A DNA stretch of 64,000 nt, taken from positions 6,494 to 70,493 of IMG/VR virus record IMGVR_UViG_3300037424_000794. One strand, written 5' to 3'. The translations under genes were made by a program, and so were the position numbers. This stretch comes from a virus. Taxonomy: Duplodnaviria; Caudoviricetes. Numbering within the stretch: the first letter of the stretch is position 1; each line of letters starts with the position of its first letter. Below the pieces are notes generated by a model, which worked only from the letters and a program-made list of their open reading frames with translations, was not told where the DNA came from and ran no database searches. Below, piece by piece: positions 6,311 to 24,742 of this stretch.

Positions 6311-6754
6311 CTATTCCCTTTCTTTCTCTTTTAGCTTCACTATTACCCTATTAATATCGGGTACCCCTCTGAAGATAGTTCCTGGTTGTACGTCCATTTC
6401 TCTTTCGTCTACTATAACATACTCTGTGTTATCCAGAATGTCTTGCATGTAGCCTGAATAGATAAACTTTACAGTACAATCTCCATTATCTAGCATACCA
6501 CCGCTTTCCCATCCCTTGTTATCTAGGGTTCCCCAGGTTACGTGTGCAATTGTGCTCCAACCGCTATATGTAGGAATCCAGTACAATCCTGAGCATGTCG
6601 GACAAAAAGAATCTGTAGATGTATCTGATATAGGGTCTAGTGAGCATACTGGGCAGCCAGAATAGGTGGCAGTAAAGAATGTAACTTCTCTGCCATCCTG
6701 CTGTATCATTTCCTCAATCAGTTGTTTCGTGTTGGTCGGGAATGGTGCTATCAT
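6311..6754 (-). CDS. Head closure/head-tail adaptor with Cys-rich insert
   Basis: Likely start MIAPFP at 6754. CPVC...CPTC insert, and a YVIVDEREM-type C-terminus seen in head-closure proteins. Confidence 0.5.
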   Translation of the reverse strand: MIAPFPTNTKQLIEEMIQQDGREVTFFTATYSGCPVCSLDPISDTSTDSFCPTCSGLYWIPTYSGWSTIAHVTWGTLDNKGWESGGMLDNGDCTVKFIYSGYMQDILDNTEYVIVDEREMDVQPGTIFRGVPDINRVIVKLKEKERE

Positions 6755-7973
6755 TAGTAGTACAAACCTCTGTAAAAATATTCTTCCATTGCTGTGCAAT
6801 GTTTTTCCATTCATATTCCGGAGATAGGAACTTGCTTCTGCATTTATCTGAGAGTTCGTTTCTTAGCTCTTTGTCACTATATAGAATCTCTAAGCATCTT
6901 GCAACTTCTTTTGCGGTCGTAACTTTCCCTACAGTTTCACTTGCATCAAATGTCCAGTTAGTTACGGTCTCCATAATTAGACCACAGTCATTGAATAATT
7001 CTTCACAAGCACTATGTCTAGGAACCACCTGAACTGCACCAGTTACAGCGTGCTCTACGTTGGTCAGCCCCCACCCCTCTCCCATTCCTGTATTTATTCC
7101 AACATCACATGCATTATAGATAAGATTTAATTTGTTTCTTGGAACTCGTTGTATTCCTGGATTTAGGCTAGTAAATATCAGTCGATCTTCGACTTTGTAT
7201 CTTCTAGATTGCTTTACGATGTCTACAGACGAGTCTCTGACTCCGCAGTGCATGTACAGTCTAACGTTCTTTGGCTTATCTTTAGCAAATAGGCTAAAGC
7301 CCTCTATCGTTATATCCAGTTTCTTTCTTGGCTGATTTCTATTCGCATTTAGAACAATAAACAGGTCTTCTAGATTCCCGAAATCCTTGGCTCTTTTGCC
7401 AAATAATTCCTGTCTGGCCTGTGCTCTGTTATTGTATATCTTATAGAAATCGGAAGAATCTACGCCATGAGGAACTATTCCTAGTTCCAAATCAGGCATA
7501 CAATCCTTGTCGTTGATTACATCTTTTCCAAACCGAGTATATGTATACGCTTTGGTTACTATATCAAAATCTCTATACCACTCTTTATCATGGCATTTAG
7601 AATCTACTGGAAAGTAAACTACTATCTTCGGTAAGGTTTTTTTTACATTTTTCTTTATAGCATCTAAATAGTATGATATAACCCACGCATCATTCAGAAT
7701 AAAAACAAAATCGAAATCAAGAGAATTAAGTATATTGCATACTCTATCTATTCCATAGATGTTTCCCCTTCCGCCTATTATAGCCGGATATATTGGAAAA
7801 TCATAGTCGTGTGGGTCTCCATTGTAGTTAACCCCAACACCAGTAACATTTACATCATCTTGAATATTTTTTATGGTATTGTGCATGACTGTAGAGAACC
7901 CGGTCTCTGCTACCATGTCTCCTATAAAAAGTCCTCTAAGTTTCTCTTGTCCCTTAACTTCCTCACTACTCAT
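6714..7973 (-). CDS. Glycosyltransferase, GT-B fold, GT4-like
   Basis: TGFSTV N-terminal loop, NRNQPRKK, and EGWGLTNVE nucleotide-sugar motif (E-x7-E). Likely start MSSEEV at 7973. Confidence 0.85.
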   Translation of the reverse strand: MSSEEVKGQEKLRGLFIGDMVAETGFSTVMHNTIKNIQDDVNVTGVGVNYNGDPHDYDFPIYPAIIGGRGNIYGIDRVCNILNSLDFDFVFILNDAWVISYYLDAIKKNVKKTLPKIVVYFPVDSKCHDKEWYRDFDIVTKAYTYTRFGKDVINDKDCMPDLELGIVPHGVDSSDFYKIYNNRAQARQELFGKRAKDFGNLEDLFIVLNANRNQPRKKLDITIEGFSLFAKDKPKNVRLYMHCGVRDSSVDIVKQSRRYKVEDRLIFTSLNPGIQRVPRNKLNLIYNACDVGINTGMGEGWGLTNVEHAVTGAVQVVPRHSACEELFNDCGLIMETVTNWTFDASETVGKVTTAKEVARCLEILYSDKELRNELSDKCRSKFLSPEYEWKNIAQQWKNIFTEVCTTNDSTIPDQHETTD

Positions 7974-7989
7974 TAAAAAATCCTTTCTA

Positions 7990-8484
7990 CTAGTCGTTGT
8001 ATTCTTCTGCACCAGGAATTTCTGTTCTTACTACTCCGGTTAGTCTCTTTGTAGGTGGCTTTATGTAGAACTGAAGCTCTTCCCACAGTCTTTTAAGGCT
8101 GGACTCCTTTATCTTACCACCCTCTATGTTAGATACTGAAACTTCAGCATCTCTCCAACTACCAACATTCCATGAGGAGCTTTCTAGTGAGCCATCTTTT
8201 GTAATAATTGTAGCCATAAGTATTATTGGAGTCTCATCTTGTGGCTGTATTACTGGCGGCTCATCAAAAATGAAAGTACTTCCTGTGTATCTGGATACAT
8301 CATAAGTAGTCTCATTAATTAGATATCTAATGCCCCACCATCTTTGGAGAGCCTTGACAGCAAATACCAGAGAGACTCTTAGCCACTCGTCTAAATATCT
8401 ATATGAAGATGGGTCTATATCTCCTAGCTTCCATCTGAGGGCTGGGATTAAGTAATCCAAATCTGTTTCTACTGGTATTGACAT
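7990..8484 (-). CDS. Head-tail connector (adaptor) protein
   Basis: LIPALRWKLGD start and position after the capsid genes. Confidence 0.55.
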   Translation of the reverse strand: MSIPVETDLDYLIPALRWKLGDIDPSSYRYLDEWLRVSLVFAVKALQRWWGIRYLINETTYDVSRYTGSTFIFDEPPVIQPQDETPIILMATIITKDGSLESSSWNVGSWRDAEVSVSNIEGGKIKESSLKRLWEELQFYIKPPTKRLTGVVRTEIPGAEEYND

Positions 8485-9133: not shown

Positions 9134-10801
9134 TCATAGCAGTGCAAGTAATCCGTATGTTGGGTTATCAACCATCTCGACAAATCCAGCGTGGTTTGGG
9201 TGTACATCATCCACCAATAGCGTTGCCTCATTGCCGACAAAGATGTTCCTCGTGTCAATCCCGGCATAGCACACACCTGGATTTGCGGCTACAAGGTCAT
9301 CAATCCAGCCCGCCAGCGTAACGAAACGACTGGCATACAACGCACCCTGCCGGTACGATTTACAAAGGTAAATTCTTGCGCCCGACCATTTCGCATGTAT
9401 AGCATCGATGATGCTTTGGTACGCCGCTTTCCATGTTGTTTCGTTGAATGATGCCCAATGGTCAGCAGTGTCTACAACATCGTTGGCACCGAGCAAGATC
9501 ATCACATAAGTGGGCGTCCCGGTAGTTGCCGCCAAGTCTGCGGCGATTACTCCATTTTCATCCAATACATCGTAGCCACCGTGACCCGCGCGTGTTGTGA
9601 TCTCGTACCAGTACCCTTTTGTTGCTGCCGCGATGCCCGCCGTTAGCAATGGCGGGTAGCCCTGCCCGGTTACTTCGTCGGTCGCTCCTACAGTGATGCT
9701 GTCGCCAATGGCAAAAACATCACCGTCAACAGCACCGCTAAAAAAAGGCGTTAGAAAACTTGCGTCCCCCCCAACGACTTTTACCTGTTCTGACCATGCA
9801 GAGAATGTATTTCCTGCATAGGTTCCGATAATTCCAACATAGAGATTGTCTTTTATGGTTGCATCCGAGATAGTGAATGTTGATGCAATGGCAACGTCAT
9901 TGAGCAAAACCTTGACACTCGTTCCCTGCTTTGCTATGGTGATTTTGTCGTTGGCTGCAAAATCCTGAACTTTCGAGCCAACCGTCGAAAAATCCCCACC
10001 ATTCACCACCTTCTTGACCCACAGCGTTTGTCCGTTATGGAAAATGTTCACGTAGTTTTGGGGGTTGGAGGGATTATCCAGTCCAATAATAATCCCCGCC
10101 ATTGTTCCGCGTTCCAGGCTGGCAATGGTCAACTCGACCACATAATCAGCAGTGGGGTACGCCGGGCGAGTTACAAACAATTCCGCATCAGTGAGCAACC
10201 TAGCCGAACCAGCATCGAAAAAAAATGCCGTTCCGTTATCTGGATTCCCCTCTTTGTTGTAGCGCATCACAGAGTTGACGGCAGTTGTTCTAATTGTTCT
10301 TACGCGGCTCACCCAATCGCCGGTTCCGATAAATTTCATGTTTGGATCATCGCTCCCGGCAGCATCCGTTGTAAGCCGAGAGCCTTTTCCGATTGGAACC
10401 TTTTCTTGAAAAACGACATGGTGGTATCTCTTGTAAAGGTCGGTTGCACAACTGATATAACAATTTGCCCCACCGTTCGCCCAGGTCAATTTCGCAGAAT
10501 AGTTACCCTGTACCTTGTCGGTTCCTTCCCGATCTACTGTGTTTCCTCCATCGCCATACTCCGACCAGCTTACTAAATGAGTTGGATCGCTCCAGTTTTC
10601 GACTCCGCCGTCAGCAAACCACTCATCAACACCTATAGCGGGGCTATTGAGCATTTTATTACTGGCAATTGTTGCCAATGCACCTACCCAGCCATTACCC
10701 ACTGCACCGTTGTCGCGTGTGAACGCGTCCGAGAACTGGAGAGGTGCAGGCAAGCCCTCATCAAACATCCCCATCGACACAAAAGGTCTTGATCTATTCA
10801 T
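9134..10801 (-). CDS. Multidomain protein: beta-sandwich/carbohydrate-binding-like N-terminus plus C-terminal SGNH/GDSL esterase
   Basis: All four SGNH blocks are present: AIGDSIT, GHGG, LLGAND, DDVHP. Confidence 0.8.
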   Translation of the reverse strand: MNRSRPFVSMGMFDEGLPAPLQFSDAFTRDNGAVGNGWVGALATIASNKMLNSPAIGVDEWFADGGVENWSDPTHLVSWSEYGDGGNTVDREGTDKVQGNYSAKLTWANGGANCYISCATDLYKRYHHVVFQEKVPIGKGSRLTTDAAGSDDPNMKFIGTGDWVSRVRTIRTTAVNSVMRYNKEGNPDNGTAFFFDAGSARLLTDAELFVTRPAYPTADYVVELTIASLERGTMAGIIIGLDNPSNPQNYVNIFHNGQTLWVKKVVNGGDFSTVGSKVQDFAANDKITIAKQGTSVKVLLNDVAIASTFTISDATIKDNLYVGIIGTYAGNTFSAWSEQVKVVGGDASFLTPFFSGAVDGDVFAIGDSITVGATDEVTGQGYPPLLTAGIAAATKGYWYEITTRAGHGGYDVLDENGVIAADLAATTGTPTYVMILLGANDVVDTADHWASFNETTWKAAYQSIIDAIHAKWSGARIYLCKSYRQGALYASRFVTLAGWIDDLVAANPGVCYAGIDTRNIFVGNEATLLVDDVHPNHAGFVEMVDNPTYGLLALL

Positions 10802-10825
10802 AATAAGCTCCAGCTAATGTAAATA

Positions 10826-11146
10826 TTACTTTGTCCATAGTACATAGTTTCCTGTATTCTCGTCTAATATATATCCGCTAAAAGTAATATTAGCTAGGTC
10901 TGACAGATTAGTGTTACCGGAGATGGGGTCTATCCAGTAAAGGTTTCCACTCATTGCTGCATAATTAAGTTCTACAAATTCCCCCGTATTGGCATCTATA
11001 ACCATTATTGTTCCAGAAGGGGCGGACGAATTAAGCTCAAAAAACTCTCCTGTGTTTGCATCAATGAGAGTTATAATTCCAGAACCCGCAGTATCTACGT
11101 CTACGAATTCTCCTGTATTGTAATCAATCAATTTTATAATGGTCAT
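10826..11146 (-). CDS. Repeat protein (five ID-x-N-T-G-type repeats)
   Basis: IDYNTGEF, IDANTGEF (x2), IDPISG, LDENTG. Confidence 0.65.
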   Translation of the reverse strand: MTIIKLIDYNTGEFVDVDTAGSGIITLIDANTGEFFELNSSAPSGTIMVIDANTGEFVELNYAAMSGNLYWIDPISGNTNLSDLANITFSGYILDENTGNYVLWTK

Positions 11147-11207: not shown

Positions 11208-12107
11208 TTACGCCAAATCTATGACGTAGATACCGTCAGCACGGTCAATTATCATACCGAACTGCTGGTATAGCTGCAAGTGCCAATATGGAGGAATTGG
11301 CTTGTTGTCAACCCAGTCTTGTGTTCTTGACTCTCCGTAAGTAATGAAATCACCTACGTTTTGACCGATTACCAAAACTTTGTCGTTAGGGATCAATGCT
11401 GTGTAATCGATTGGGTTGTCATACTGCTGGTCAAGGGCTATTAATGGAGCACCGTAGTACTTGCCCAAGAAACCAGTAGACATGATTTCTCTGATGTTAT
11501 CTGGAACTTCTGCTACATTTGTACCATCACTCCAAAATGCACCGAATTTGGTTACTGGAGTTAGGGCAGCGCGAGTTCCGATAACAGCCTTTACACCAGA
11601 AGTAGTCTGATTGATTCTATCAATCGCATTTTCTAGTGCTGTGGCTGTAAGTGTTGCAACTGATGTGTAGTTGTCAGGAGTATTAACTGCTGACCAGATA
11701 TTTGACAATGCTAGGAAGACCTTACCTAGGTAATAGTCTCTTAGTTTTGCCTGCATTTCTGAGCGAATTGAATCTACACTTCCCAATTCTCCAGACTGTA
11801 GTTCCCAGTCGTTGTACATTGTGTGTACAACAGCACCGTCTAGCACATAGTTAATGCGGTCACGAACTGTGACTTCACTAGCTAGGTGGACAGACCCTGG
11901 AACTAGAGTACGAACCTTGATTCCTTTTCTTACTTTCTTTACTAGAGCGTCGCCTACGTTTAGGCTTCTAGAATTCAAAAGCAAAGAAACGAAATCCACT
12001 GTTAGATGCACAGGATCAACGTACTCTACGATTAGCTGTGCAAGAGCCTCGCGCTTTCCATCCTTTAGCAAAGCAGCGACAGCTTCCTTGAATTTAGTCT
12101 CATCCAT
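11208..12107 (-). CDS. Major capsid protein
   Basis: 299 aa, follows portal, protease and decoration genes. HK97-like C-terminal pattern (GFLGKYYGAPL...VLVIG...YVIDL). Terminator downstream. Confidence 0.8.
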   Translation of the reverse strand: MDETKFKEAVAALLKDGKREALAQLIVEYVDPVHLTVDFVSLLLNSRSLNVGDALVKKVRKGIKVRTLVPGSVHLASEVTVRDRINYVLDGAVVHTMYNDWELQSGELGSVDSIRSEMQAKLRDYYLGKVFLALSNIWSAVNTPDNYTSVATLTATALENAIDRINQTTSGVKAVIGTRAALTPVTKFGAFWSDGTNVAEVPDNIREIMSTGFLGKYYGAPLIALDQQYDNPIDYTALIPNDKVLVIGQNVGDFITYGESRTQDWVDNKPIPPYWHLQLYQQFGMIIDRADGIYVIDLA

Positions 12108-15407: not shown

Positions 15408-16952
15408 TTAAATCCACACAGCCCTAAGAAGCTTGAGTCTAGGTCTGGCCAGAGAGAATTCTTTGAGCATATGGAATGCTCCTACTGCACATAGCAAAGC
15501 TGATGTAAAGTGATCTTCTCCTCTTTTGCCTCCCTTTTCAGTTAGGGTTTTGTAAGATATGTCTCCATTTGTATTTTTCGTATAGGTCATTCTCTCTAGT
15601 TCCGTAACCATGTCTGGATCAGTAGATGAGTAAATGACTCTTCCGCTGTTCGTCATTTCTTGCAGAACAGATACAAAGAATGGTTTTAGCTTTACTTTGG
15701 TTTCTTCTCCATCAGCATTTATACCAAGAGAAAGCCATGATGAGAACTCCACAGGATATATTCTATCCTTGTAGTTCTTGTGTATATAGTCGTTATGGAG
15801 TTGCCACGTCTGTATTGAGTTCTTACCAGCATTTCCAGCATCTACGGCTATAAAAGATGGTTTAAATTTGGTATCTAAAAGGTCTATTAATTTTTCTTGT
15901 ATTGGATATGCTACCTTAGATAATTGTATCCTACCGTGAAATCTTATGTTATCCTTACCATCGAGATATAGTATAGCGATGGCCGTAGGCTCTGTATATC
16001 CCATATCTATTCCAAAGAATATACCGTAATTAGTCTCTTTGATGGTAGGGAACATATCTATTTTTGTAATTATTTCGCCAAGATCGTCTGTTTTGATTCC
16101 GTCTATCTTTAGCTGAACAACTGGATATTTGTCTATGTTCATCAAGTTTCTGTCAAACAAAGCAAATACTGGCTTACCATGCTGCCCCAAAACGTAGTGT
16201 ATCCAGTCCTCACTATCCTCATCTCCATACTGTTCCCTAAAGTCCTGAATATGTGATTCTGTGACCATTGGATTATCGAACGCAGAGACTCTGTGTTTTG
16301 TATAACCTTCATTTTCTTGGTCTACTGCATACAAAACATTTCGTTCTCTAAGCCCAGTAGGAACACCTGAAACTATTTCTCTGTGTCCAGGAGTCCAGGC
16401 ATTTAGGGATGGCTGCATTTCATTAAATGCGTTGAATGGGAAATACCCACCTTCATCTACGATAATAAATGGAGTGTGTAGAGCAATCAGGTTTGCCCCA
16501 GTCCCAGATTGTCCAGCAATACGACACAATAAAACTGCCCCATTTTTCAACGTAATCTTGAACTCTGAGCTGTTTACGCCCGACTTAGCATCGATAAAGT
16601 TCTTCAAAAAAGAGTTGGTCTTAAATAAACGTATCAGGTTTGTAAATACAGGCTCTAAGTGAACTTTGCTAGGAACTGTAAATAGGGTATAGTCGTTTGG
16701 AAAAATATTAAAGTAAAGAATCCAAAGAAGTATCGAATAGTCACTTACGGTCTTTCCTGTTGCTCTAGCTGTACATAAGGATACCTTTGGATTAAAGTCG
16801 CAGAGAATTTCCTTTTGGTACCATTTAAATACAAAAGGCTCATCTAGTTTTGGGTCTTTATCTACATTATAGACAAACTCTGGCCCAAGTACCGGATGCT
16901 TAAGTATTTCGTATAATACTATGTCTTCTTGAGAAATCTTCTCTGCTAACAT
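15408..16952 (-). CDS. Terminase large subunit
   Basis: Walker A (ARATGKT), Walker B (IIVDEG), coupling motif (GVPTG), RNase H-like nuclease acids (FGIDMG, IAVDAG, DHFTSAL). Confidence 0.92.
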   Translation of the reverse strand: MLAEKISQEDIVLYEILKHPVLGPEFVYNVDKDPKLDEPFVFKWYQKEILCDFNPKVSLCTARATGKTVSDYSILLWILYFNIFPNDYTLFTVPSKVHLEPVFTNLIRLFKTNSFLKNFIDAKSGVNSSEFKITLKNGAVLLCRIAGQSGTGANLIALHTPFIIVDEGGYFPFNAFNEMQPSLNAWTPGHREIVSGVPTGLRERNVLYAVDQENEGYTKHRVSAFDNPMVTESHIQDFREQYGDEDSEDWIHYVLGQHGKPVFALFDRNLMNIDKYPVVQLKIDGIKTDDLGEIITKIDMFPTIKETNYGIFFGIDMGYTEPTAIAILYLDGKDNIRFHGRIQLSKVAYPIQEKLIDLLDTKFKPSFIAVDAGNAGKNSIQTWQLHNDYIHKNYKDRIYPVEFSSWLSLGINADGEETKVKLKPFFVSVLQEMTNSGRVIYSSTDPDMVTELERMTYTKNTNGDISYKTLTEKGGKRGEDHFTSALLCAVGAFHMLKEFSLARPRLKLLRAVWI

Positions 16953-17807
16953 TTACTGTTTACTTCTCCACATTCTAACTGTTTCTACTTCACTTGCTCT
17001 TGTAAATATACTCAAATTTGGTGTTGCTGATTCTTTCCCCACTTCCCCACCCCATTTCATTTTATAGTAGTCTTTATTTCGCTCGAACTGTTTACTTGTG
17101 CTTCCACCACTTCCTTCGTGGATAGTTCTACTCCAGAAATGAAAGAATCTCGCATTAGTTAGAGAACAGCATTTTATGTTGGACAGAACGATTCTTCTTG
17201 CATAATCATTATCTATGAAATATGCAGGATAGAAGTTTACATCCGTATAGCCTACTTTTTGAAACACTGATCTTTTATACAAGCATAGGTTCTGGATATC
17301 ATACAAGCGCATATCTGCGATATTATGTTCTGGAGAATAATTTGCAAATCTCTTCCAAGGCTCAGAAGACAAATCCTTAGTTACATAATTGTTTCCGCTA
17401 AAGCAAGAAGCGGCATCCGGAAACTCTCGTATCAAATCTTTTATATCGTATTGTAATGCACTAATAACTTCATAGTCGGATGCACTCGCTAGATCAATTA
17501 AAGAATCTATGCAATAAGGATAAGGCACTACATCATTCCCCATTAGTACTAGATTATCATAGTTGTTTACTTTCCACGCATAGTCGTAAAGATCATTTAC
17601 ACTGAACGGAAAGCCCATATTCTCTTTATGCATAACATAAGGTATGTTTTCCTTATCAAACCATTGCGCCGTTTCCCAGTCTCCCGGTTTCCCTACTATC
17701 GCTGCTATATCATATGAGTTTTTTACAGTTTCTCTTATTCCTTGTACAAGAAGTTTAGTGAATTTCAGTCCTCCAAACGTACAGAATGCCAATAAGTTTT
17801 TGCTCAT
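16953..17807 (-). CDS. Glycosyltransferase family 2 (GT-A)
   Basis: NMGFPFSVN, LMGNDV (DxD-like), FYPAYFIDNDYARR, FFHFWSRT. Confidence 0.8.
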   Translation of the reverse strand: MSKNLLAFCTFGGLKFTKLLVQGIRETVKNSYDIAAIVGKPGDWETAQWFDKENIPYVMHKENMGFPFSVNDLYDYAWKVNNYDNLVLMGNDVVPYPYCIDSLIDLASASDYEVISALQYDIKDLIREFPDAASCFSGNNYVTKDLSSEPWKRFANYSPEHNIADMRLYDIQNLCLYKRSVFQKVGYTDVNFYPAYFIDNDYARRIVLSNIKCCSLTNARFFHFWSRTIHEGSGGSTSKQFERNKDYYKMKWGGEVGKESATPNLSIFTRASEVETVRMWRSKQ

Positions 17808-18172
17808 TTTACTTCAAAGACCGGAACCTTTCCAAAGTTTCTGTGAATAGATGCCATATCATCGAACATAATATCGACACCCAATTCTCTGCACACTCTT
17901 TGCTTAAACCTTCCTACTATTTCCTCATTACTTTGCACTTTTCCTATAAGTTTTCTTTCTTCATCATTATAGAAGGAGGTGGTTATTATTTTATCATACC
18001 AGGTTTTATCTTGAAACCAAGGATATTTGCTCATTCTTTGCGCTAAACCATCACTTCCCAATCCTGTAATTATATAAACTCTTCCACCACTGGTTTTTAT
18101 TAACCTACCGAGTTCTATGAATAATTCAGGATATTTGGTAATAGTACCATCAATATCAATACCTATTATCAT
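17804..18172 (-). CDS. HAD-family phosphatase-like protein
   Basis: IGIDIDGTIT motif I, ITG motif II, K...MFDD motifs III/IV. Confidence 0.75.
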   Translation of the reverse strand: MIIGIDIDGTITKYPELFIELGRLIKTSGGRVYIITGLGSDGLAQRMSKYPWFQDKTWYDKIITTSFYNDEERKLIGKVQSNEEIVGRFKQRVCRELGVDIMFDDMASIHRNFGKVPVFEVK

Positions 18173-19035
18173 CCTAAAACCTCCTCGATCTTTTCTATTA
18201 CCTTTAATCCATTAGTAGCATCAGACCAAAACTTAGCTATCTTTACTTTAGTATTTACTACAAAACTAGAACCTGAAAACTTGTATGTAAAGGATAGTAG
18301 CTTCTTTGATTCGTCCATAACATTTCTTTTGACTTGAGTGTATACGTGTGGCCCAGAGTTTCTTCCTATGAGAGTACTACAATATAGACTTAGAAACGAT
18401 GCTTCATTCAAATCGAATCCAATCCCCGGAGCAAACTCCCCCACAAACTCTAGATTGGGTCTATTATTTTTGAATGCCTGAGTGCATATAAACAGCTTAT
18501 CTTTATGCATTTCTGTTAGACTAAGTACAATTGAGTTCATATCGAAATTTTCTGCTTGCATGGATTGCACTAATCCATTATCTATATATATTCGTTCTGT
18601 ACCTTCCGTAGCTCGTATAAAATCTAGCACTTTTTGAATATCATACTTCTCATAATCTATGTCAGGAATATAATCTATCGGCTCTCCGGGAAGAACACCT
18701 AAGTCGTAAACCTTTAGCATGTCATTATGCATATCATATAGTTTCTCTACGGTACATCCTATGCCAGGTAAAACGTACTTCCCGTCTCTTCCTATCCAAG
18801 TATTCACGTACAGGTTTCCATTTGTATCATCCCACACGCCCCTCATTGGATTCATATGTTCGGTAACATCTTTGAATTTCAATTCAGGAATGTCCAATAA
18901 TATCCTAGGATTTTTCCCGTGCGAGTAGTAGTATTCCTCTGCTGGAACTAGTTTCATCCACGCCTTCACAAACTCTCTAGACTCAAAAACATCCCCTGCT
19001 CCGAAGTGGTTATAGAATATAACTTGGTTATACAT
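18169..19035 (-). CDS. Putative GT-B glycosyltransferase (GT9-like)
   Basis: GAGDV at the N-terminus and LIGRNSGPH resembling the GT9 DSGPxH motif. Likely start at 19035. Confidence 0.5.
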   Translation of the reverse strand: MYNQVIFYNHFGAGDVFESREFVKAWMKLVPAEEYYYSHGKNPRILLDIPELKFKDVTEHMNPMRGVWDDTNGNLYVNTWIGRDGKYVLPGIGCTVEKLYDMHNDMLKVYDLGVLPGEPIDYIPDIDYEKYDIQKVLDFIRATEGTERIYIDNGLVQSMQAENFDMNSIVLSLTEMHKDKLFICTQAFKNNRPNLEFVGEFAPGIGFDLNEASFLSLYCSTLIGRNSGPHVYTQVKRNVMDESKKLLSFTYKFSGSSFVVNTKVKIAKFWSDATNGLKVIEKIEEVLG

Positions 19036-19675
19036 TCTCTGTCTTTCTGAATGCAAATGTAGCAAAGCTATAAACATGCCCTTGGTATACAAATGAGTCT
19101 ATATCTGAGTAATCTTGCTCTCCAGCGACTTGGCACCCATATCTACCTAATACAGATGGTAGTCTTGTTTTCAAATCGTAATTTGTGTAGAATCTTACAT
19201 CAGAGTACGGTAGTGGGTCTCCGGTTTTATACCCTTCCTTGAAATCCATCGTTAGTATAGCCTGGCCACCAGGAAGCAGTAGTTGGCATATTTCAGATAT
19301 AAACTGCTCATCATCTTTTACATGCTCTATCACGGAAGTAGAGAATATAATATCGAATTTATCATCTGTACCTACAAAGAACTTATGAAGGTCTAAGCCG
19401 TTCACATCTGGGTCTATTTCAAATATAGGAATTCCGCTTGCTTTCAATGAAGCACACGCTGTATCTTCAAAAGAACCTACACATAGTAGGGGAACTTTAA
19501 CCCCACCGGATTTTAGCATAGCACCCCTTACGGCTTCAAAAACAAATGCTTGCTGAACGTTTGCTTCAGAAATCTTTCTAGACATCATCTCTGGACAAAA
19601 CCCAAACATGTTTTTTATCGTAAGAGAATATAGTTCTCTGTCTTCGTTTGTTAATACTCTATTTAACGTCCTCAT
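19028..19675 (-). CDS. Class I SAM-dependent methyltransferase
   Basis: LCVGSFED motif I; FDIIFSTSVIEHV; LLPGG. Confidence 0.8.
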   Translation of the reverse strand: MRTLNRVLTNEDRELYSLTIKNMFGFCPEMMSRKISEANVQQAFVFEAVRGAMLKSGGVKVPLLCVGSFEDTACASLKASGIPIFEIDPDVNGLDLHKFFVGTDDKFDIIFSTSVIEHVKDDEQFISEICQLLLPGGQAILTMDFKEGYKTGDPLPYSDVRFYTNYDLKTRLPSVLGRYGCQVAGEQDYSDIDSFVYQGHVYSFATFAFRKTENV

Positions 19676-20576
19676 TAAGTATCCTTTCTACATCCTCGTA
19701 AAATCTCTCAGGATTCCATTTATCGTAAAACTCCTGTAGTGGTTTTGTTCCTTTGTTTATAATATCCGATAGGGAGTGCTTTTCTGCATCTATCCCTTCC
19801 TTATACACATGCTTAAACATGGTATCATTTGTTATAGCAATTGGTCTCTTTACAGATAGGGCATAATCTATGACACTAGAAAGTCCCTGATTTGCCGCAT
19901 GGTACATAAAAACATTTATATCGTTTCCCGCTAAGAATTCAAGAGTCCTTTCATTGCTTAGGAATTTATGATCTATCTCCAAATTTATTCCGGGCTTTGT
20001 GTTTAGTTCTCTGCATTTGTCTGCTATTTTTCTTGTTTCCTTGCCAAGACGATCACCAAAGAAAGCAAATGGCATTTGTATGTTTATGTTAGCATGGTCA
20101 AATTCGTTATTGACTTTACTAACCAACTCGGTAAACCCTTTTTGCCATCCTCCGAACCCAAAGCTACCTATGGTAGGATATGAATTTATTTTGTATTCCC
20201 CGTTGTATGTAAACAATGGTCTTGAAATGATTACTTTCTTAGCTTCCTCTATGTGTATATCTTTGCCCTCTGAGCCAGAAAATATATACTTGTCAAAATT
20301 CTGCCTCATATTTCCATCATGAAACAGGAAATAATGTTTACAATCTTTCCTATTATTTACATACTCTTCTGATAACCAAGGCATAGTTACCGGATACCAG
20401 TTATAAAGTATTACATCATAATGCTGGTTTGCCCACACATCGAACTCTGACTTGGTTTCCACTTCTATATATGTATATGAAATCCTGTCCGATTTCATAG
20501 CTAAATCGAAGACTCTTTTGCCAAATTGATACACCCCACACTGTTGCTGTTTATGATTTACTAATAGAACATTCAT
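19659..20576 (-). CDS. Putative GT-B glycosyltransferase (GT4-like)
   Basis: CGVYQFG N-terminus; GSFGFG..KGF; [17 protein letters not shown]. Confidence 0.6.
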
Positions 20577-21528
20577 GTTCAGCAAGCCTCATATCGCTCC
20601 GTACCATATCATCTACTAGAGACTGAAACGAATAAGATGGGTGCCATCCTAGCACCTTATTGGCTTTGTCTGGATTTCCAAGCAAGTTTTCTACTTCTGT
20701 AGGTCTAAAATAGTTACTATCAACCACTACATATTTATTCCAATCAAGCTCTAATTTTCCAAAGGTTAGATCGAGGAAGTCTCTAATGGAGTGGTTTTCT
20801 CCTGTAGCGATCACGTAATCATCTGCTCTATCTTGCTGCATCATCATCCACATGGCCTTAACATAGTCCTTAGCGTGTCCCCAGTCTCTACGAGCATCTA
20901 GATTTCCAAGCCTAAGTTCATTCTGTAGACCATAGTATATTCTAGAAGCTGCTCTGGTAATCTTTCTAGTAACAAATGTCTCGCCTCTGCGTGGACTTTC
21001 GTGATTGAAGAGTATACCATTGCATATGAACATTCCATATCCGTCTCTGTAATTTCTGCCCATGTTGTATGCATATAACTTGGCTGCTGCATACGGACTT
21101 CTTGGATTAAATGGACTTACTTCGCTTTGAGGGGGGAGAGTATTTCCGAACATTTCTGAGCTAGATGCATTATAAATTCTGGCTTTGCTTCCGAGAATCT
21201 TGCATGTCTCGTATATTTCCAAGGCCCCCAGACCAACTACATCTCTGCTATATTTTGGTATGTCGAACGATACCTTTACGTGGCTCATTGCAGCTAGATT
21301 GTATATCTCATCTGGGTCTATATCGTGTACTAATTTCACTATTGAAAGAGAATCTGACAAATCCCCATAATGAAGGTGTAGCTGGTCGAAGATATGATCT
21401 ATTCTTCCTGTGTTAAAGGAGCTTGATCTTCTCATAGCGCCGTGAACTTCATAGCCTTTTTCAAGCAGAAGCTCAGCCAGATAGCTACCGTCTTGCCCAG
21501 TAATGCCAAATATCAGTGCCTTTTTCAT
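20551..21528 (-). CDS. gmd: GDP-mannose 4,6-dehydratase
   Basis: [61 protein letters not shown]. Confidence 0.96.
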
Positions 21529-21779
21529 TTCTTATTCTTTTCAAAGTATGTATATGTTTTGGTGGCTGTAAATCCCTCATGCCCGACTACTTCATTAATA
21601 GCACCAATCAACTGGCTTCTCTTGGCATTCTGCTCTTGTGCTCTGATAGCGGCTTGTAATCTGTCGTGCTCCGACAGGCTTTCGTCCATTATATCTTCTT
21701 GAGCCATCCAGCACCGTAAGTTTGTAGTGATTAGGGAATCTATTAGTTCTCCCAGAGTCTTCTCTCTTCCGCTAGTCAT
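21525..21779 (-). CDS. Small helical protein, DUF4254-like
   Basis: LGELIDSL...CWMAQED...[12 protein letters not shown] pattern; coupled to gmd. Confidence 0.45.
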
Positions 21780-23013
21780 CCTTTAAATCATCCTTTCCTA
21801 TAATATGGAACGTTGGTAATGGAAATACTAACTTGCCTCCATTTTTTATATACTTCCTAATAGGCTCTTTTGTTAGCAGATTCTTCTCAAAGTGCCACAC
21901 TGGTACTATGAAATAATCTGGTTGTCTTTCTAGTGCCTCATCTTCGGAGATGATTTTTATGTTTGAGCCTACTGTTCTTAAGCCAAATTTATCCTTGTTT
22001 ACTTCGGCTGCATATCTTACTTTTTTATCCGTTACATTACATATCTGTAGTAGGGTGTTTCCTTTTGTACTAGCGCCAAGTAAGTAAACTGTGTGACCTA
22101 ACAGACTAGCGATATTCAGAAAGGAGTCTAAATCACCTTTTGCCTTTTCTATGCTGGAAGAGAACGTGTCCATTATCGATGGCTTTAGATATTCTGCTTC
22201 GTTCTGTAATGCTCTTATTACAGTACCAGTAAGTACGTACCTACTAGAGTGTCCGGCTACTACTCTGAGACTTCCCCCATTAACATCGTTGTAAGATACG
22301 TCTATTGCAGCTAACCCATTTTTTTGCAGTAGGTTTACTACATCAATCAATCTATAGTATTCCAGATGCTCATGACAAACATTATCAAATGCCGTAGCCT
22401 TTATCATGGATGTTAAGTCCGTGAATTGTACTATAAATAAACCATCATCACTAAGTATATCTTTTACGTTCTTCAAAAAGTTCTTAGGGTCAGGAAGATC
22501 GTAAAACATGGCTACCGCTGTTACTACTTTAGCTTTTGTGTGTCCTTTTAAATCCAAGAACCCGTCTGCATTGAAATAATCGTTGTAGAAATAACTACAA
22601 CCCGGACGTTTCAAATTAAGTGCGGGGTCAAATCCCACAGTGATTAGGTTTTTATTACTATATAGACTGAGAAGAGTTCCATCGTTGCATCCTATGTCTA
22701 CCACGGTATCGTAGTCTTTTAGTACTATTCTCGATTCTATATCATTAACTATGTCTTTCAGCGAGGAAATCATGCTCTTGTTCAATGAAGATGAATACCA
22801 ATACTGTCTGTACATTAAATCCAGATTGACTGTGTGCCTTAATTGTATTAGACCACAATTCTTACATTTGCAAAGCTGCAACGGAGCTTTATTCTCTGCA
22901 CATGGTTGTTCCCCATCCTTTACAAAACCAGAGGGAAATATATTCCCCAAATAATAAATATCCGCAAGCTCATTCCCGCAAGCCCTACAATTATTTTCCT
23001 TTACAATATCCAC
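21772..23013 (-). CDS. NDP-hexose C-methyltransferase (Zn-binding N-terminus, SAM domain, C-terminal domain)
   Basis: CRAC...CKNCGLIQL; VDIGCNDGTLL; HEHLEYY; GASTKGNTLL. Confidence 0.9.
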   Translation of the reverse strand: MDIVKENNCRACGNELADIYYLGNIFPSGFVKDGEQPCAENKAPLQLCKCKNCGLIQLRHTVNLDLMYRQYWYSSSLNKSMISSLKDIVNDIESRIVLKDYDTVVDIGCNDGTLLSLYSNKNLITVGFDPALNLKRPGCSYFYNDYFNADGFLDLKGHTKAKVVTAVAMFYDLPDPKNFLKNVKDILSDDGLFIVQFTDLTSMIKATAFDNVCHEHLEYYRLIDVVNLLQKNGLAAIDVSYNDVNGGSLRVVAGHSSRYVLTGTVIRALQNEAEYLKPSIMDTFSSSIEKAKGDLDSFLNIASLLGHTVYLLGASTKGNTLLQICNVTDKKVRYAAEVNKDKFGLRTVGSNIKIISEDEALERQPDYFIVPVWHFEKNLLTKEPIRKYIKNGGKLVFPLPTFHIIGKDDLKDD

Positions 23014-23014
23014 T

Positions 23015-23740
23015 CTACCTCATACTCTCCGGTGTAATTTCTAATTTATTCGTTCCTCTATTTTCCATTAGTGTTTTTGTATCTACTACTGTTTTGTGTC
23101 CACACTCTGTACCGTCAGCAAGTTTTCTATGACATACAAGGGCGATCTTGTTTCTATCCTCTTCTGGATACAGAGTCCACAGAGTACCTAGTAGCATGTT
23201 GCATTTCTCGCAGAATATGTAGCTCATCTTGGATTCGTAGAATCTCTTAGCCTTGTCTTTTAGTCCGTCTATGTAAGCCATAACTGAGACATCTTGATCT
23301 GATTTTCTAACTTTTCTAGTAATCATCAAATCATTCTGTATTTTACTGATATCGCTGGTTAGGCTCTCCATAGCTTTTTGAAATTTCTCTATAGTCCCAA
23401 GCTGTGCTTCTTCAATTCCCTCAGAGCGTAGAGAATACATGTATTGCTCATAATCTTCTAGTGTTAGTTGCTTCTGGATAAGTGCTCTAAGGGAGTCTCT
23501 GTCATTTATTTTCAGATCGGATAGATCATAATCCTTATCGAATTCGTCCAGCTTCCTATTAATTCTGTCCTCAAAATCAGGAGAAGTCTGTGCTCCTAGT
23601 TTCTTCTTCTCCATTGCCTTCTCAAATTCTTCATCTGACAAGTCTCTGTACTGCACTAGATTTCTGGAGCGCTTTTTCTTCCCCAAAGCCGGGCTCTTTA
23701 CTTCTCCTTCTGGCATTATTTCGTAGTTTTTATCCTCCAT
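23015..23740 (-). CDS. Hypothetical protein, candidate terminase small subunit
   Basis: First gene of the late operon; basic N-terminus, coiled coil, C-terminal CEKC...CGH. Assigned by position only. Confidence 0.4.
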   Translation of the reverse strand: MEDKNYEIMPEGEVKSPALGKKKRSRNLVQYRDLSDEEFEKAMEKKKLGAQTSPDFEDRINRKLDEFDKDYDLSDLKINDRDSLRALIQKQLTLEDYEQYMYSLRSEGIEEAQLGTIEKFQKAMESLTSDISKIQNDLMITRKVRKSDQDVSVMAYIDGLKDKAKRFYESKMSYIFCEKCNMLLGTLWTLYPEEDRNKIALVCHRKLADGTECGHKTVVDTKTLMENRGTNKLEITPESMR

Positions 23741-23772
23741 AGTTCCTCTCTTTTAGGGATTTTACTATAATA

Positions 23773-23778
23773 ATTATA
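23773..23778 (-). promoter_or_regulatory. -10 element (TATAAT) with no recognisable -35; candidate late promoter
   Basis: TGTTGTATAAT just upstream of the morphogenesis operon. Confidence 0.35.
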
Positions 23779-23828
23779 CAACATTTGAGTGTTTTTGGGC
23801 GTTTTTACCAATTATTTTAAATAAATAG

Positions 23829-23862
23829 AGGCAGGAGGCGTATTTCTACGTTGCTCCTGCCT
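23829..23862 (-). terminator. Rho-independent terminator
   Basis: AGGCAGGAG...CTCCTGCCT stem followed by CTATTTATTT. Confidence 0.7.
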
Positions 23863-23884
23863 ATTAGTCCGCTAAACTATGGAA

Positions 23885-24142: not shown

Positions 24143-24742
24143 TTATTCAACAATATATTGTTTTTCAAGGGCAGATAGAATAATATCTGCCTTGGTATTT
24201 AGCTCATCAATACTTCCGGAGTTATCTATGCTAAAATTATAAAATCCATCCCATTGTGGCCATAACCACTCAAATGAAAACTCCGTTAAACTAGTTTCTG
24301 ATACATCAGCCCAGTTAGAGTCTGGCATTTCTGCGTGTCTACCGAACACCCGTATAGTAACAATATCCAGCATAGGATTTTTCTTTAGGTAGTCTACCTC
24401 ATTAGGAAATCTCCAATCATCAATTACTGCGAAGTTCTTGGGGAACATTCCTGCTCTATTATCTAACTGGCGTAGGAAATGCTTCACCCAAATATCTTGA
24501 TCGTAATCTCTCCATACTCTCCCTATGTTCTGTAAGAACGATCTTCCCCTTTCATCCTTCTCCTTATTCCATCCTCCGTAAGCCTCGGCTATGTACTTAA
24601 TGGGGTCTGCAAATCCATACTCCATAACGTCCATAGAGAATGTGTCTTTTAGCTTCTTAATCATTAGTTCGCCTATGGTGGTCTTTCCTGCTCCGGCTTT
24701 TCCCGAAATAAGTATTACGACGGTTTTCCTAGTTCTAGCCAT
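24143..24742 (-). CDS. Deoxynucleoside monophosphate kinase-like P-loop kinase
   Basis: ISGKAGAGKTT, FADPIK, IDDWRFPNE, SET. Confidence 0.8.
   Translation of the reverse strand: MARTRKTVVILISGKAGAGKTTIGELMIKKLKDTFSMDVMEYGFADPIKYIAEAYGGWNKEKDERGRSFLQNIGRVWRDYDQDIWVKHFLRQLDNRAGMFPKNFAVIDDWRFPNEVDYLKKNPMLDIVTIRVFGRHAEMPDSNWADVSETSLTEFSFEWLWPQWDGFYNFSIDNSGSIDELNTKADIILSALEKQYIVE

Follow-up and report, generated by a model that had tools for sequence, protein, structure and literature searches.

The study behind O-glycosylation of mycobacteriophage virions is reportedly that of Freeman et al. in 2023. The phage proteins named in this context are Che8 gp110 and Corndog gp38, together with phage Myrna (as summarised in PMC12363180 and PMC12619734); according to PMC12363180, soluble phage glycosyltransferases (GTs) attach to capsid and tail-tube proteins of the same phage a glycan that serves as a surface shield. 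In giant viruses, as far as the available sections of PMC9614988 go, the major capsid protein carries a methylated deoxysugar glycan that is made independently of the host, by virus-encoded GMD, soluble cytoplasmic GTs and sugar O-methyltransferases. The components listed there are a viral GMD, the GT-GT-methyltransferase A064R, A061L and B736L for the chloroviruses PBCV-1 and NY-2A, and sugar clusters for mimivirus; those sections mention no C-methyl branched sugar. Among the nucleotides tested, B736L bound GDP-mannose best. A GDP route to virenose has been modelled in silico for the lipopolysaccharide (LPS) of the bacterium Coxiella burnetii, with Gmd, a TylCIII-like 3-C-methyltransferase and a GDP-4-keto-6-deoxymannose epimerase/reductase (PMC3539893).

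The locus described here shares GMD, soluble GTs and the coupling of a GT to a methyltransferase with the chloroviruses. However, chloroviruses and mimivirus infect eukaryotes, and in the available text their genes are scattered or lie in other clusters, not in a hypervariable island beside a terminase gene. Unlike the mycobacteriophage system, the island contributes to nucleotide-sugar synthesis itself (Gmd and a C-methyltransferase), heads the packaging operon and has a different content in each relative; here, glycosylation is a prediction from the genes. Phage DNA hypermodification clusters (5mYOX or ThyS with GT-A/GT-B enzymes; arabinosyl-5hoC in RB69 and DLP3) likewise combine GT genes, including TarP-like GT-A, sometimes with sugar-tailoring genes and next to the terminase, but the base-hydroxylating enzyme that defines them is absent from our record and from complete relatives.

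Gene order and transcription of the island

The window, a stretch of 64,000 nucleotides, belongs to an uncultured tailed phage of the 90-kb class whose record spans 70.5 kb and is 77% complete. The phage is probably virulent, since no integrase was found. The island comprises eight intact minus-strand ORFs (16953-23013) flanked by a conserved gene for a 241-aa protein and by the gene for the terminase large subunit (TerL), with a dNMP kinase gene as neighbour.

6714..8012, minus strand: extra GT-B/GT4 glycosyltransferase in the head-tail gene block (phrog_2170 at 2.5e-31)
15408..16952, minus strand: terminase large subunit, TerL (phrog_2 at 1e-17), abutting the island
16953..17807, minus strand: GT-A fold glycosyltransferase, GT2-like, 284 aa (phrog_29879 at 9.5e-13)
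17804..18172, minus strand: HAD-like protein, 122 aa (motifs only: DIDGT at the N-terminus, FDD further on)
18169..19092, minus strand: GT-B glycosyltransferase, GT9-like by AF2 fold, 307 aa (likely start 19035)
19028..19675, minus strand: class I SAM methyltransferase (Pfam Methyltransf_11/23)
19659..20585, minus strand: compact GT-B glycosyltransferase, GT4-like by AF2 fold, 308 aa (likely start 20576)
20551..21528, minus strand: GDP-mannose 4,6-dehydratase, Gmd (TIGR01472 473.6 bits; PF16363 4e-127)
21525..21779, minus strand: DUF4254-like 84-aa protein, partner of the C-methyltransferase (family-level PF14063 matches)
21772..23013, minus strand: NDP-hexose C-methyltransferase, TylC3/TcaB9/MtmC type (Pfam Methyltransf_13/23/14)
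23015..23740, minus strand: conserved 241-aa protein, candidate small terminase, with a C-terminal four-Cys zinc ribbon; first gene of the unit
23741..23884, minus strand: terminator-like hairpin with T-run, then extended -10 promoter-like element, then ribosome-binding site (read from the intergenic sequence)

All eight ORFs of the original prediction were recovered on the minus strand, with overlapping or abutting stops and starts. They are translationally coupled, the overlaps being 8, 4, about 26, 17, about 8, 4 and 4 nt in gene order; the gap is 1 nt between the 241-aa and C-methyltransferase genes and 0 nt between the GT-A and TerL genes, and such junctions continue to TerL and the portal gene. 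The hairpin and promoter upstream are kept in three relatives (L005, L007 and L008 in our numbering of loci), where the stem sequences differ yet pair and the TGnTAnAAT box is retained; a consensus scanner did not call the hairpin because its loop is long. This element is likely the start of the late packaging/head transcript and, as terminator and promoter are conserved just upstream, the island would be part of that transcript, which backs the coupling to the packaging/head operon proposed earlier. The 241-aa protein has homologues in 12 relatives (44-64% identity, four invariant Cys), and in L028 TerL immediately follows its gene. Its earlier designation as small terminase finds no Pfam, PHROG or PDB support; it is a candidate by position only.

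Sugar-synthesis and transfer enzymes

The predicted NDP-hexose C-methyltransferase matches Methyltransf_13, 23 and 14 and aligns over its full length with MtmC (4rv9, 1e-45), as well as with TcaB9 (3ndi, 2e-32) and the sugar 3-C-methyltransferase 5t6b/5t64. It shares with these enzymes a build of three domains, the Cys4 zinc site (CxxC...CxxC), the SAM motif (DIGCNDG) and the HEH motif. MtmC, TcaB9 and 5t6b/5t64 belong to antibiotic pathways and have dTDP-2,6-dideoxy or 3-amino sugars as substrates, whereas the gene context here indicates a GDP-6-deoxyhexose, the predicted substrate being GDP-4-keto-6-deoxymannose. Gmd, as named originally, scores above the curated TIGR01472 cut-off of 415 bits. 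The two genes are neighbours here and in L008 and, among the best 80 cellular homologues of the C-methyltransferase, Gmd lies within 6 kb in 25 and is adjacent in 14. A GDP-fucose-synthase-like epimerase/reductase accompanies the pair in relatives and in a cyanomyovirus, the order being Gmd - Fcl-like - C-methyltransferase in L030 and Gmd - C-methyltransferase - GDP-L-fucose-synthase in cyanophage DSL-LC02. The Coxiella logic (Gmd, C-methylation of the 4-keto intermediate, Fcl-type reduction) is thus shared, with the full trio in L030 and DSL-LC02 and without the reductase step in the source phage: no 4-ketoreductase occurs in the whole 70.5-kb record, as had been seen in the window, and Gmd is the sole SDR. 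The missing reductase counts against the pathway, in a record that is incomplete. The enzymology first proposed, from Gmd to a C-methyl branched sugar, is well supported by a Gmd beside a full-length 3-C-methyltransferase-type enzyme and by concordant gene neighbourhoods. As for the 84-aa protein, the DUF4254 assignment holds for its family, with PF14063 matched by eight of ten members (best 4.3e-5), and not for this copy, which had no significant match when queried alone. The family's gene directly follows the C-methyltransferase in 8/10 loci and precedes an FkbM methyltransferase in L007.

Neither GT-B protein has a Pfam match, and both were classified by AF2 models that agree with the classes assigned originally. 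The 308-aa model (pLDDT 93) is closest in Foldseek to SenB (2.6e-9), HepE and GT4 enzymes, with a methylmannose-polysaccharide mannosyltransferase and T4 AGT also matched, and reaches TM 0.83-0.85 by query, for most atlas matches with Glycos_transf_1 clusters. Its family has invariant G140, G143 and K149, a nearly invariant D240 and up to four copies per relative. The 307-aa model (pLDDT 87) has GT9 enzymes as top matches (3tov 2.9e-7, WaaC, WaaF and the protein heptosyltransferase TibC, 1.6e-6) and TM 0.69-0.70 with Glyco_transf_9 clusters; its gene is found in 15 related loci. The presence of TibC, a GT9-fold protein glycosyltransferase, among these matches is in line with a virion link. The GT2 call is upheld by the phrog_29879 match and by a family profile that matches TarP (6h1j, 2.9e-4) and DPM synthase; the GT-A gene occurs in 18 other loci and adjoins TerL in most relatives.

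The second SAM methyltransferase, confirmed by Methyltransf_11, is probably a sugar O-methyltransferase acting with the preceding GT. The GT4-like and methyltransferase genes are adjacent in L004, L006, L008, L011, L021 and L029, one stop-free frame matches both in a Planctomycetia MAG (L105), and a 595-aa Bacteroidota cluster with the fold of the GT4-like protein also bears Methyltransf_11. No island protein has a membrane or hydrophobic segment (maximal Kyte-Doolittle 19-residue mean 1.23), and no lipid-carrier transferase, flippase, polymerase, ligase, export or membrane gene was seen among the annotated genes. Judging from its sequence, the intact gene set of the island should enable the infected cell to produce a rare C-methylated deoxysugar and to assemble a methylated chain of sugars.

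The HAD-like gene probably represents an independent insertion outside the sugar pathway. The DIDGT and FDD motifs of the predicted phosphatase are present, while Pfam, NCBIfam and PDB gave no match and tblastn found no counterpart in any related locus examined, including L008, where gene order is otherwise the same. Elsewhere 33 more homologues were found, several of them on contigs of 70-106 kb; in L118, a ribonucleotide reductase gene lies about 0.8 kb upstream of the HAD-like gene.

Turnover among relatives and the head-tail glycosyltransferase

TerL homologues were found in 29 related viral loci (48-78% identity), and a sugar island is present in all 13 relatives in which both flanks are seen. 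Where it lies between the 241-aa gene and TerL, it holds 4-11 genes; its content differs in every relative examined, with a turnover that outpaces the TerL phylogeny. The cluster is neither missing nor decaying, L008 retaining the same seven island genes at 56-82% amino-acid identity. The island borders the replication module and lies upstream of the 241-aa gene in L028, two observations that count against a virion target. Distal genes in relatives include aminosugar or acyl genes, and the L105 counterpart consists of Gmd, the C-methyltransferase, two GT4-like matches, the methyltransferase match in one frame, and an SDR.

The additional GT of the head-tail block, presumed to belong to the same system, scores near the cut-off for Glycos_transf_1, and its sole PDB sequence match is chlorovirus NY-2A B736L (3.8e-15). 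It is kept at the same place in eight relatives (L005, L007, L013, L015, L017, L021, L028 and L030) and has homologues within structural modules of the cultured phages S-CBS4, S-EIVl and TJE1. In the Synechococcus siphophage S-CBS4 (NC_016766), gp014-gp016, annotated as glycosyltransferase, galactosyl transferase and SAM methyltransferase, lie in the structural module between the portal and head-protease genes; we found no functional study of them in the literature searched. The first is homologous to the head-tail GT (aligned over 88% of the query, 33% identity) and the second to the TerL-side GT-A (hhalign 99.5%, E 8e-23), while the methyltransferase has no significant similarity to that of the island (BLASTP E 0.016 over 41 residues). 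S-CBS4 thus carries a minimal three-gene cassette without sugar-synthesis genes. We propose that the GT9-like/GT-A pair by TerL and the head-tail GT form a conserved core.

Proposed pathway and acceptor

The module would be wholly cytoplasmic, phage-encoded and glycan-building, and expressed alongside the packaging and head genes. Gmd would convert host GDP-mannose to GDP-4-keto-6-deoxymannose, and the TylC3/TcaB9-type enzyme would add a C-methyl branch, most likely at C3. Reduction of the 4-keto group could then fall to an Fcl/Rmd-type enzyme of the host or to Gmd itself, acting in a second capacity, and the soluble GT-A, GT9-like and GT4-like enzymes, with the head-tail GT, would build a short glycan, O-methylated by the SAM methyltransferase and attached to virion structural proteins during assembly. 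Gene identities, folds, operon structure, conservation and turnover are observed directly; substrate, regiochemistry, reductase source, transferase order and acceptor are what we infer here. Since the island differs in every relative, sugar-coating of the virus particle appears most likely, and we give glycosylation of virion proteins, with a glycan containing a 3-C-methyl-6-deoxyhexose, a probability of about 0.5. The evidence for this target is circumstantial: the late-operon position, the GT in the head-tail block, soluble enzymes and the lack of lipid-carrier/export or DNA-hydroxylating genes. By analogy, S-CBS4, with homologues of the head-tail GT and GT-A and a SAM methyltransferase among structural genes, may point the same way. 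Against it, neither a Ser/Thr-rich tail nor another obvious acceptor tag was seen in the structural proteins, and no transferase here has a tblastn match in mycobacteriophage records, so the proven phage system is an analogue only.

One alternative, which we consider unlikely, is that the soluble transferases remodel a host envelope glycoconjugate (lipid-linked LPS core, O-antigen, teichoic-acid or capsule intermediates) on the cytoplasmic face. The altered cell surface could then, for example, exclude other phages or keep progeny off debris. Among the fold relatives are the LPS heptosyltransferases WaaC/WaaF, TagF/TarM from teichoic-acid synthesis and the prophage wall teichoic acid transferase TarP, the Planctomycetia MAG holds a cellular counterpart of the module, and cell-surface modification is the usual reading of such genes in cyanophage papers (PMC12801897). 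In DSL-LC02, the Gmd/C-methyltransferase/Fcl/GT4 module sits among host-like metabolic genes, away from the terminase, which favours the envelope and counts against a virion target. However, a probably virulent phage without a detected integrase, transcribing the island late with terminase and head genes, would leave a new surface polymer little time to matter. Nor does this explanation fit the lack of membrane, flippase, polymerase and ligase genes and of hydrophobic segments in the island proteins, or a GT fixed within the head-tail block across the lineage.

It is rather improbable that the glycan goes onto a different cytoplasmic acceptor, such as a non-structural protein of phage or host, or a lipid or small molecule set free when the cell lyses. 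SenB and pteridine glucosyltransferases, compact GT-B relatives, do act on small molecules, the virion proteins lack an acceptor signature, and no acceptor is known for B736L, the closest relative of the head-tail GT with a solved structure. Yet such an acceptor does not account for an island held at one position within the late structural operon or for a turnover typical of surface-exposed glycans, and no aglycone-making genes were seen in the island.

Glycosylation of the phage's own DNA shortly before packaging, blocking host nucleases as modelled on glucosyl, arabinosyl or other forms of 5hmC, 5hmU and 5hoC, would suit an island next to terminase and dNMP kinase genes and the T4 alpha-glucosyltransferase among the fold matches. 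For RB69 and DLP3, whose DNA is oligo-arabinosylated, synthesis of NDP-arabinose by the phage itself has been proposed, and DNA-modifying GT clusters can adjoin terminase, epimerases and secondary GTs, their GT-A enzymes resembling TarP (bioRxiv 2023.12.21.572611); that TarP-type enzymes include DNA glycosyltransferases also counts against a virion target. We nevertheless regard it as improbable, because every known route needs a thymidylate-synthase homologue or TET/JBP dioxygenase for the hydroxyl acceptor, and both are absent from the record and from two complete relatives with terminal repeats, as are a C5 cytosine methyltransferase and its ParB partner from the record; the DNA-hypermodification literature searched (including the same preprint) gave no GDP-sugar donor, and a conserved GT within the head-tail block is not expected of a DNA system.

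If virion proteins are indeed the target, a phage-made rare C-methyl sugar with its transferases would exceed what phage systems with GTs alone can do. The C-methyltransferase, Gmd, GT4 copies and methyltransferases, with the aminosugar and acyl genes of relatives, would vary the outer glycan and, as these distal genes diversify it, each phage of the lineage may have its own version.

A variable sugar island in the packaging and head operon

All eight open reading frames of the sugar island are intact and their junctions overlap or abut as far as TerL, which confirms the eight-gene cluster claimed in the original prediction. The completeness of the 70.5-kb IMG/VR record is estimated at 77%. 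Its replication/nucleotide block, island and structural genes are arranged as listed here.

Position of the sugar island among the neighbouring genes (window coordinates)
33650-35542, minus strand: DNA polymerase, at one end of the replication/nucleotide block
24143-24742, minus strand: dNMP kinase, at the other end of this block, with DnaB and exonucleases between it and the polymerase
After the dNMP kinase and before the 241-aa gene: 82-aa membrane-type protein
23015-23740, minus strand: 241-aa protein, preceding the island
16953-23013, minus strand: eight island genes, between the 241-aa gene and TerL
15408-16952, minus strand: TerL, after the island, followed by portal, head genes, neck and tail genes, a tail tube candidate at 3361-4548 among them, and tape measure
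6714-8012, minus strand: 432-aa glycosyltransferase, among the neck genes and in the same place in eight relatives

The 144-nt gap 5' of the 241-aa gene contains a hairpin carrying a T-run and a box of the TGnTAnAAT type, together with a strong ribosome-binding site. The same arrangement is kept in three relatives, where the stem sequences diverge yet remain paired. It follows that one transcription unit appears to run from the 241-aa gene through the island and TerL into the head genes, apart from the replication genes, which supports the proposed coupling of the island to the packaging/head operon. The 241-aa gene itself had been put forward as a candidate TerS at 23015. Homology lends this no support: neither the protein nor its 12-member family has any backing from Pfam, PHROG or the PDB, leaving position as the argument for such an identity.

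We clustered the open reading frames of 29 viral contigs with a TerL 48-78% identical. Both the 241-aa gene and TerL are visible in 13 of these genomes, and in 12 they are separated by 4-11 genes spanning 3.3-9.6 kb; L028, the thirteenth, has the 241-aa gene abutting TerL, with the sugar genes just upstream. With islands in 13 of 13 two-flank genomes, the cluster is thus neither absent from relatives nor decaying. The islands all differ, except that of one relative (L008), which holds the window's seven genes other than the HAD-like one in the same order, at 56-82% identity; this shared order and the intact reading frames likewise rule out decay. Another island (L003) carries a set of DegT aminotransferase, GNAT, SDR and acyl-AMP ligase genes, and others contain ATP-grasp enzymes, an FkbM methyltransferase, a canonical GT2 or up to four GT4-like copies. 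The most conserved part is the GT9-like/GT-A pair beside TerL. In the TerL tree, the clade of the window is well supported, and island content differs even between sister genomes: the island turns over faster than the backbone. A megablast search of the region against GenBank phages returned nothing, and the nearest deposited TerL is only 22% identical, so that the lineage has no cultured close relative.

A second variable slot (window 9134-11146) directly follows the capsid gene, which lies at 11208-12107. It encodes 106-aa and 555-aa proteins here and unrelated large proteins in relatives (469 and 288 aa in L005, 590 aa in L007). Such products may serve in head decoration or as fibre proteins, and changes in this slot may go together with changes in the sugar island. 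In one relative (L026:5708-10261), the stretch downstream of the capsid gene instead holds a methyltransferase of the Methyltransf_24 family along with several unknown genes, which suggests a second possible site for glycan genes in the lineage.

The C-methyltransferase and the proposed sugar route

The gene identities proposed earlier stand up well, among them those of the C-methyltransferase, Gmd, the SAM methyltransferase and the DUF4254-like protein. The 413-aa C-methyltransferase contains three domains over its full length (Pfam PF08421, residues 9-68; PF13489, 98-237; PF08484, 244-400). Its residues 8-405 align with 12-416 of MtmC (1e-45), and TcaB9 and 5t6b, sugar 3-C-methyltransferases of solved structure, also align end to end. 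The zinc-site cysteines (C9/C12 and C50/C53), the SAM motif DIGCNDG (105-111) and a C-H-E-H motif (213-216) are all present. Among ten phage homologues, E215 and H216 never vary and H214 almost never does; we take these HEH residues to correspond to the catalytic residues of TcaB9. By architecture and motifs, the protein is recognisable as a three-domain sugar C-methyltransferase of the TylC3/TcaB9/MtmC type. Methylation at C3 of an NDP-4-keto-6-deoxyhexose is its predicted reaction, to which gene context points: Gmd is its neighbour in this phage and in relatives, as well as in 14 of 80 cellular loci.

Gmd reaches 473.6 bits with TIGR01472 (equivalog cut-off 415) and carries the NADP-binding and catalytic motifs [13 protein letters not shown] and YAAAK. 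A Gmd gene lies within 6 kb of 25 of the 80 closest cellular homologues of the C-methyltransferase. These homologues are scattered across many bacterial and archaeal phyla and offer no hint about the phage's host. The lack of a 4-ketoreductase, noted in the original prediction, extends to the whole record, where Gmd is the sole SDR, and the sequenced stretch of L008 lacks a reductase as well. Four relatives (L030, L010, L023 and L034) have a GDP-fucose-synthase-like SDR in addition to the C-methyltransferase. A complete 92.9-kb relative (G001) encodes the C-methyltransferase and no SDR at all; partial, host-dependent pathways are therefore normal in this lineage, rather than a sign of decay. 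A GDP route was proposed for the virenose of Coxiella, leading from Gmd through a TylCIII-like C-methyltransferase to an Fcl-type epimerase/reductase, and the same work describes bifunctional Gmd enzymes, able to reduce the 4-keto group as well (PMC3539893). Both the cellular pairing of Gmd with the C-methyltransferase and the gene sets of the phages match this same route.

A comparable gene row occurs in an 11-gene operon of the metagenome-assembled cyanomyovirus DSL-LC02 (L120; OR032571.1 91916-102407): Gmd, C-methyltransferase, GDP-L-fucose synthase, a glycosyltransferase, a homologue of the GT4-like protein, an FkbM methyltransferase and more glycosyltransferases. Besides the sugar and methyltransferase genes, six annotated glyco-/glucosyltransferases and one hypothetical protein make up this operon. 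The C-methyltransferase is annotated there only as 'methyltransferase domain-containing protein', and the authors assigned Gmd and Fcl to a fucose pathway, leaving the methyltransferase between them without comment (PMC10611076). The gene that intervenes between Gmd and Fcl in published cyanophage genomes can now be recognised as a sugar C-methyltransferase homologue. A literature text search found 'bacteriophage' and '3-C-methyltransferase' together in no paper, and the C-methyl branched-sugar step is new for phages so far as the searchable literature goes.

The C-methyltransferase also has a small neighbour. The 84-aa protein (window 21525-21779) gave no significant match to DUF4254 in its own single-sequence search, and eight of ten members of its family do match. 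In nine of ten phage loci, its gene adjoins a methyltransferase; it directly follows the C-methyltransferase in eight of the ten, precedes an FkbM methyltransferase in L007 and is separated from the C-methyltransferase by one gene in L004. As DUF4254 accompanies the C-methyltransferase in only one of the 80 cellular loci, this pairing is specific to these phages, and the protein may be a phage-specific partner subunit. A literature search on the function of DUF4254 found nothing.

Island transferases and the HAD-like protein

Searched singly, the 308-, 307-, 284-, 122-, 84- and 241-aa proteins had no match in Pfam or NCBIfam, and PDB sequence and profile searches returned nothing meaningful for the GT4-like, GT9-like, HAD-like and 241-aa proteins. 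The earlier GT4-like and GT9-like calls stand by predicted fold and fail by Pfam. AlphaFold models of the 308- and 307-aa proteins, built on alignments from related phages, reached pLDDT values of 93 and 87. The 307-aa protein hits no Pfam family at E up to 10, PF01075 included. Its model resembles 3tov (Foldseek 2.9e-7), WaaC, WaaF and the protein heptosyltransferase TibC (TM 0.45-0.53), as well as PF01075 clusters in the protein atlas (TM 0.69-0.70); the predicted fold is GT-B, closest to heptosyltransferases (GT9-like). For the 308-aa protein, Foldseek gave a TMq of 0.65-0.70 to SenB, HepE and GT4 enzymes, in agreement with the protein atlas, and the model has a compact GT-B/GT4-like fold. 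Its family conserves G140, G143 and K149 without exception and D240 almost so; the Gly/Lys residues would map to the nucleotide-sugar motif and D240 to the C-terminal acidic residue. The 284-aa protein had been called GT2-like. Its family profile finds TarP (2.9e-4) over the N-terminal 115 residues, with DPM synthase and GlfT2 weaker; D92, D199 and D201 are invariant, PF00535 is not matched, and the protein falls in a PHROG named galactosyl transferase. Folds are now assigned to three viral protein families without a Pfam model.

The longest-frame TTG starts of two of these genes are probably too long. On the basis of the atlas record and the family alignment, we propose ATG starts at 19035 for the GT9-like gene (window 18169-19092) and at 20576 for the GT4-like gene (19659-20585).

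The 215-aa protein belongs to the class I SAM methyltransferases, and the GT4-like gene adjoins it in six relatives. Their coupling resembles that of chlorovirus A064R, a GT-GT-methyltransferase protein (PMC9614988), and that of methylmannose-polysaccharide enzymes found among the GT4-like fold matches. A 595-aa Bacteroidota cluster of the protein atlas that shares the GT4-like fold also has Methyltransf_11. This coupling points to O-methylation of the sugar added by the GT4-like transferase. A cellular counterpart was observed at the end of a Planctomycetia MAG contig (L105:1159-7788), where Gmd and a C-methyltransferase are followed by a stop-free frame and then an SDR. This frame is about 1019 codons long and takes in two GT4-like matches together with the methyltransferase match; a weak DUF4254-like match is also present at this locus.

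The 122-aa HAD-like protein, first regarded as a phosphatase of the cluster, bears a HAD-type DIDGT motif (residues 6-10) and an FDD near residue 103, and we do not count it in the pathway. It hits only PHROGs of unknown function. We found 33 further homologues (46-85% identity); none has a Pfam domain, and several are on contigs of phage size (70-106 kb). The gene has no match in any fetched related locus, including the otherwise identical L008 island, and in the one other context visible, that of another phage, a homologue (L118:8001-8372) sits roughly 0.8 kb downstream from a gene for ribonucleotide reductase. The HAD-like gene is probably an independent small insertion, one that possibly encodes a nucleotidase-type protein.

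Target of the glycan and its meaning

Outside the island, the 432-aa glycosyltransferase has a sole PDB sequence match, B736L of chlorovirus NY-2A (3.8e-15). According to PMC9614988, B736L is a GT-B enzyme that bound GDP-mannose best of the nucleotides tested. Homologues are present in structural modules of cultured phages. In the Synechococcus siphophage S-CBS4 (L119; NC_016766.1 9916-12282), such a homologue lies between the portal and head-protease genes; next in order come a counterpart homologous to the TerL-side GT-A ('galactosyl transferase', hhalign 99.5%) and a SAM methyltransferase. S-CBS4 thus offers a cultured test system for the core transferase pair.

The original interpretation is supported in part: its sugar chemistry and operon coupling are well founded. 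As to the acceptor, we infer that the virion has the best support among the targets considered, with odds close to even. The late-operon position, the fixation of a glycosyltransferase in the head-tail block and a turnover of the island like that of surface antigens count in its favour, as do the solubility of all the enzymes, the apparently virulent lifestyle and the fact that no lipid-carrier or export genes were seen. Addition of the sugar to a host-surface glycan would agree with the LPS and teichoic-acid enzymes among the fold relatives of the transferases, and with the position of the DSL-LC02 module among host-like auxiliary genes; against the points listed for the virion, we regard it as rather unlikely. 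Glycosylation of the phage's own DNA is downgraded further by the absence of thymidylate synthase (PF00303) and TET/JBP (PF12851) from this record and two complete relatives with terminal repeats, and of C5 cytosine methyltransferase (PF00145) and ParB_N from this record; in the literature consulted, the known sugar modifications of phage DNA all start from such enzymes. A prophage moron was rejected, as no integrase was found; the phage is virulent as far as can be seen. Returning to the virion, Ser/Thr-rich stretches or tails that could serve as an acceptor tag were found in none of the structural proteins. To our knowledge, particle glycosylation is proven only in a few mycobacteriophages, by transferases alone, and mycobacteriophage records gave no sequence match to any of the transferases described here.

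It is tempting to suggest that the island is a fixed-site, O-antigen-like hypervariable glycan locus of the late operon, which would give the particle a strain-specific coat, here with a phage-made 3-C-methyl 6-deoxyhexose, its turnover reflecting an arms race centred on how the virion surface is recognised. We hold this reading tentatively, at a probability of about 35%. If true, it would be the first case of a bacteriophage making a branched-chain sugar. This uncultured aquatic or sediment lineage combines the partial synthesis of its own rare nucleotide sugar, C-methyl branch included, with several unannotated transferase families, a conserved transferase among head-tail genes and a gene set that differs among relatives yet occupies one genomic slot. 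Within virus-encoded glycan machinery, the C-methyl step, the unannotated transferases and the fixed-slot hypervariable island are its distinguishing features. Should the virion indeed be the target, diversifying glycans would be to phage surfaces much what O-antigens are to bacterial ones, which would matter for adsorption, stability and grazing, and also for immune recognition in therapy and for serological typing.
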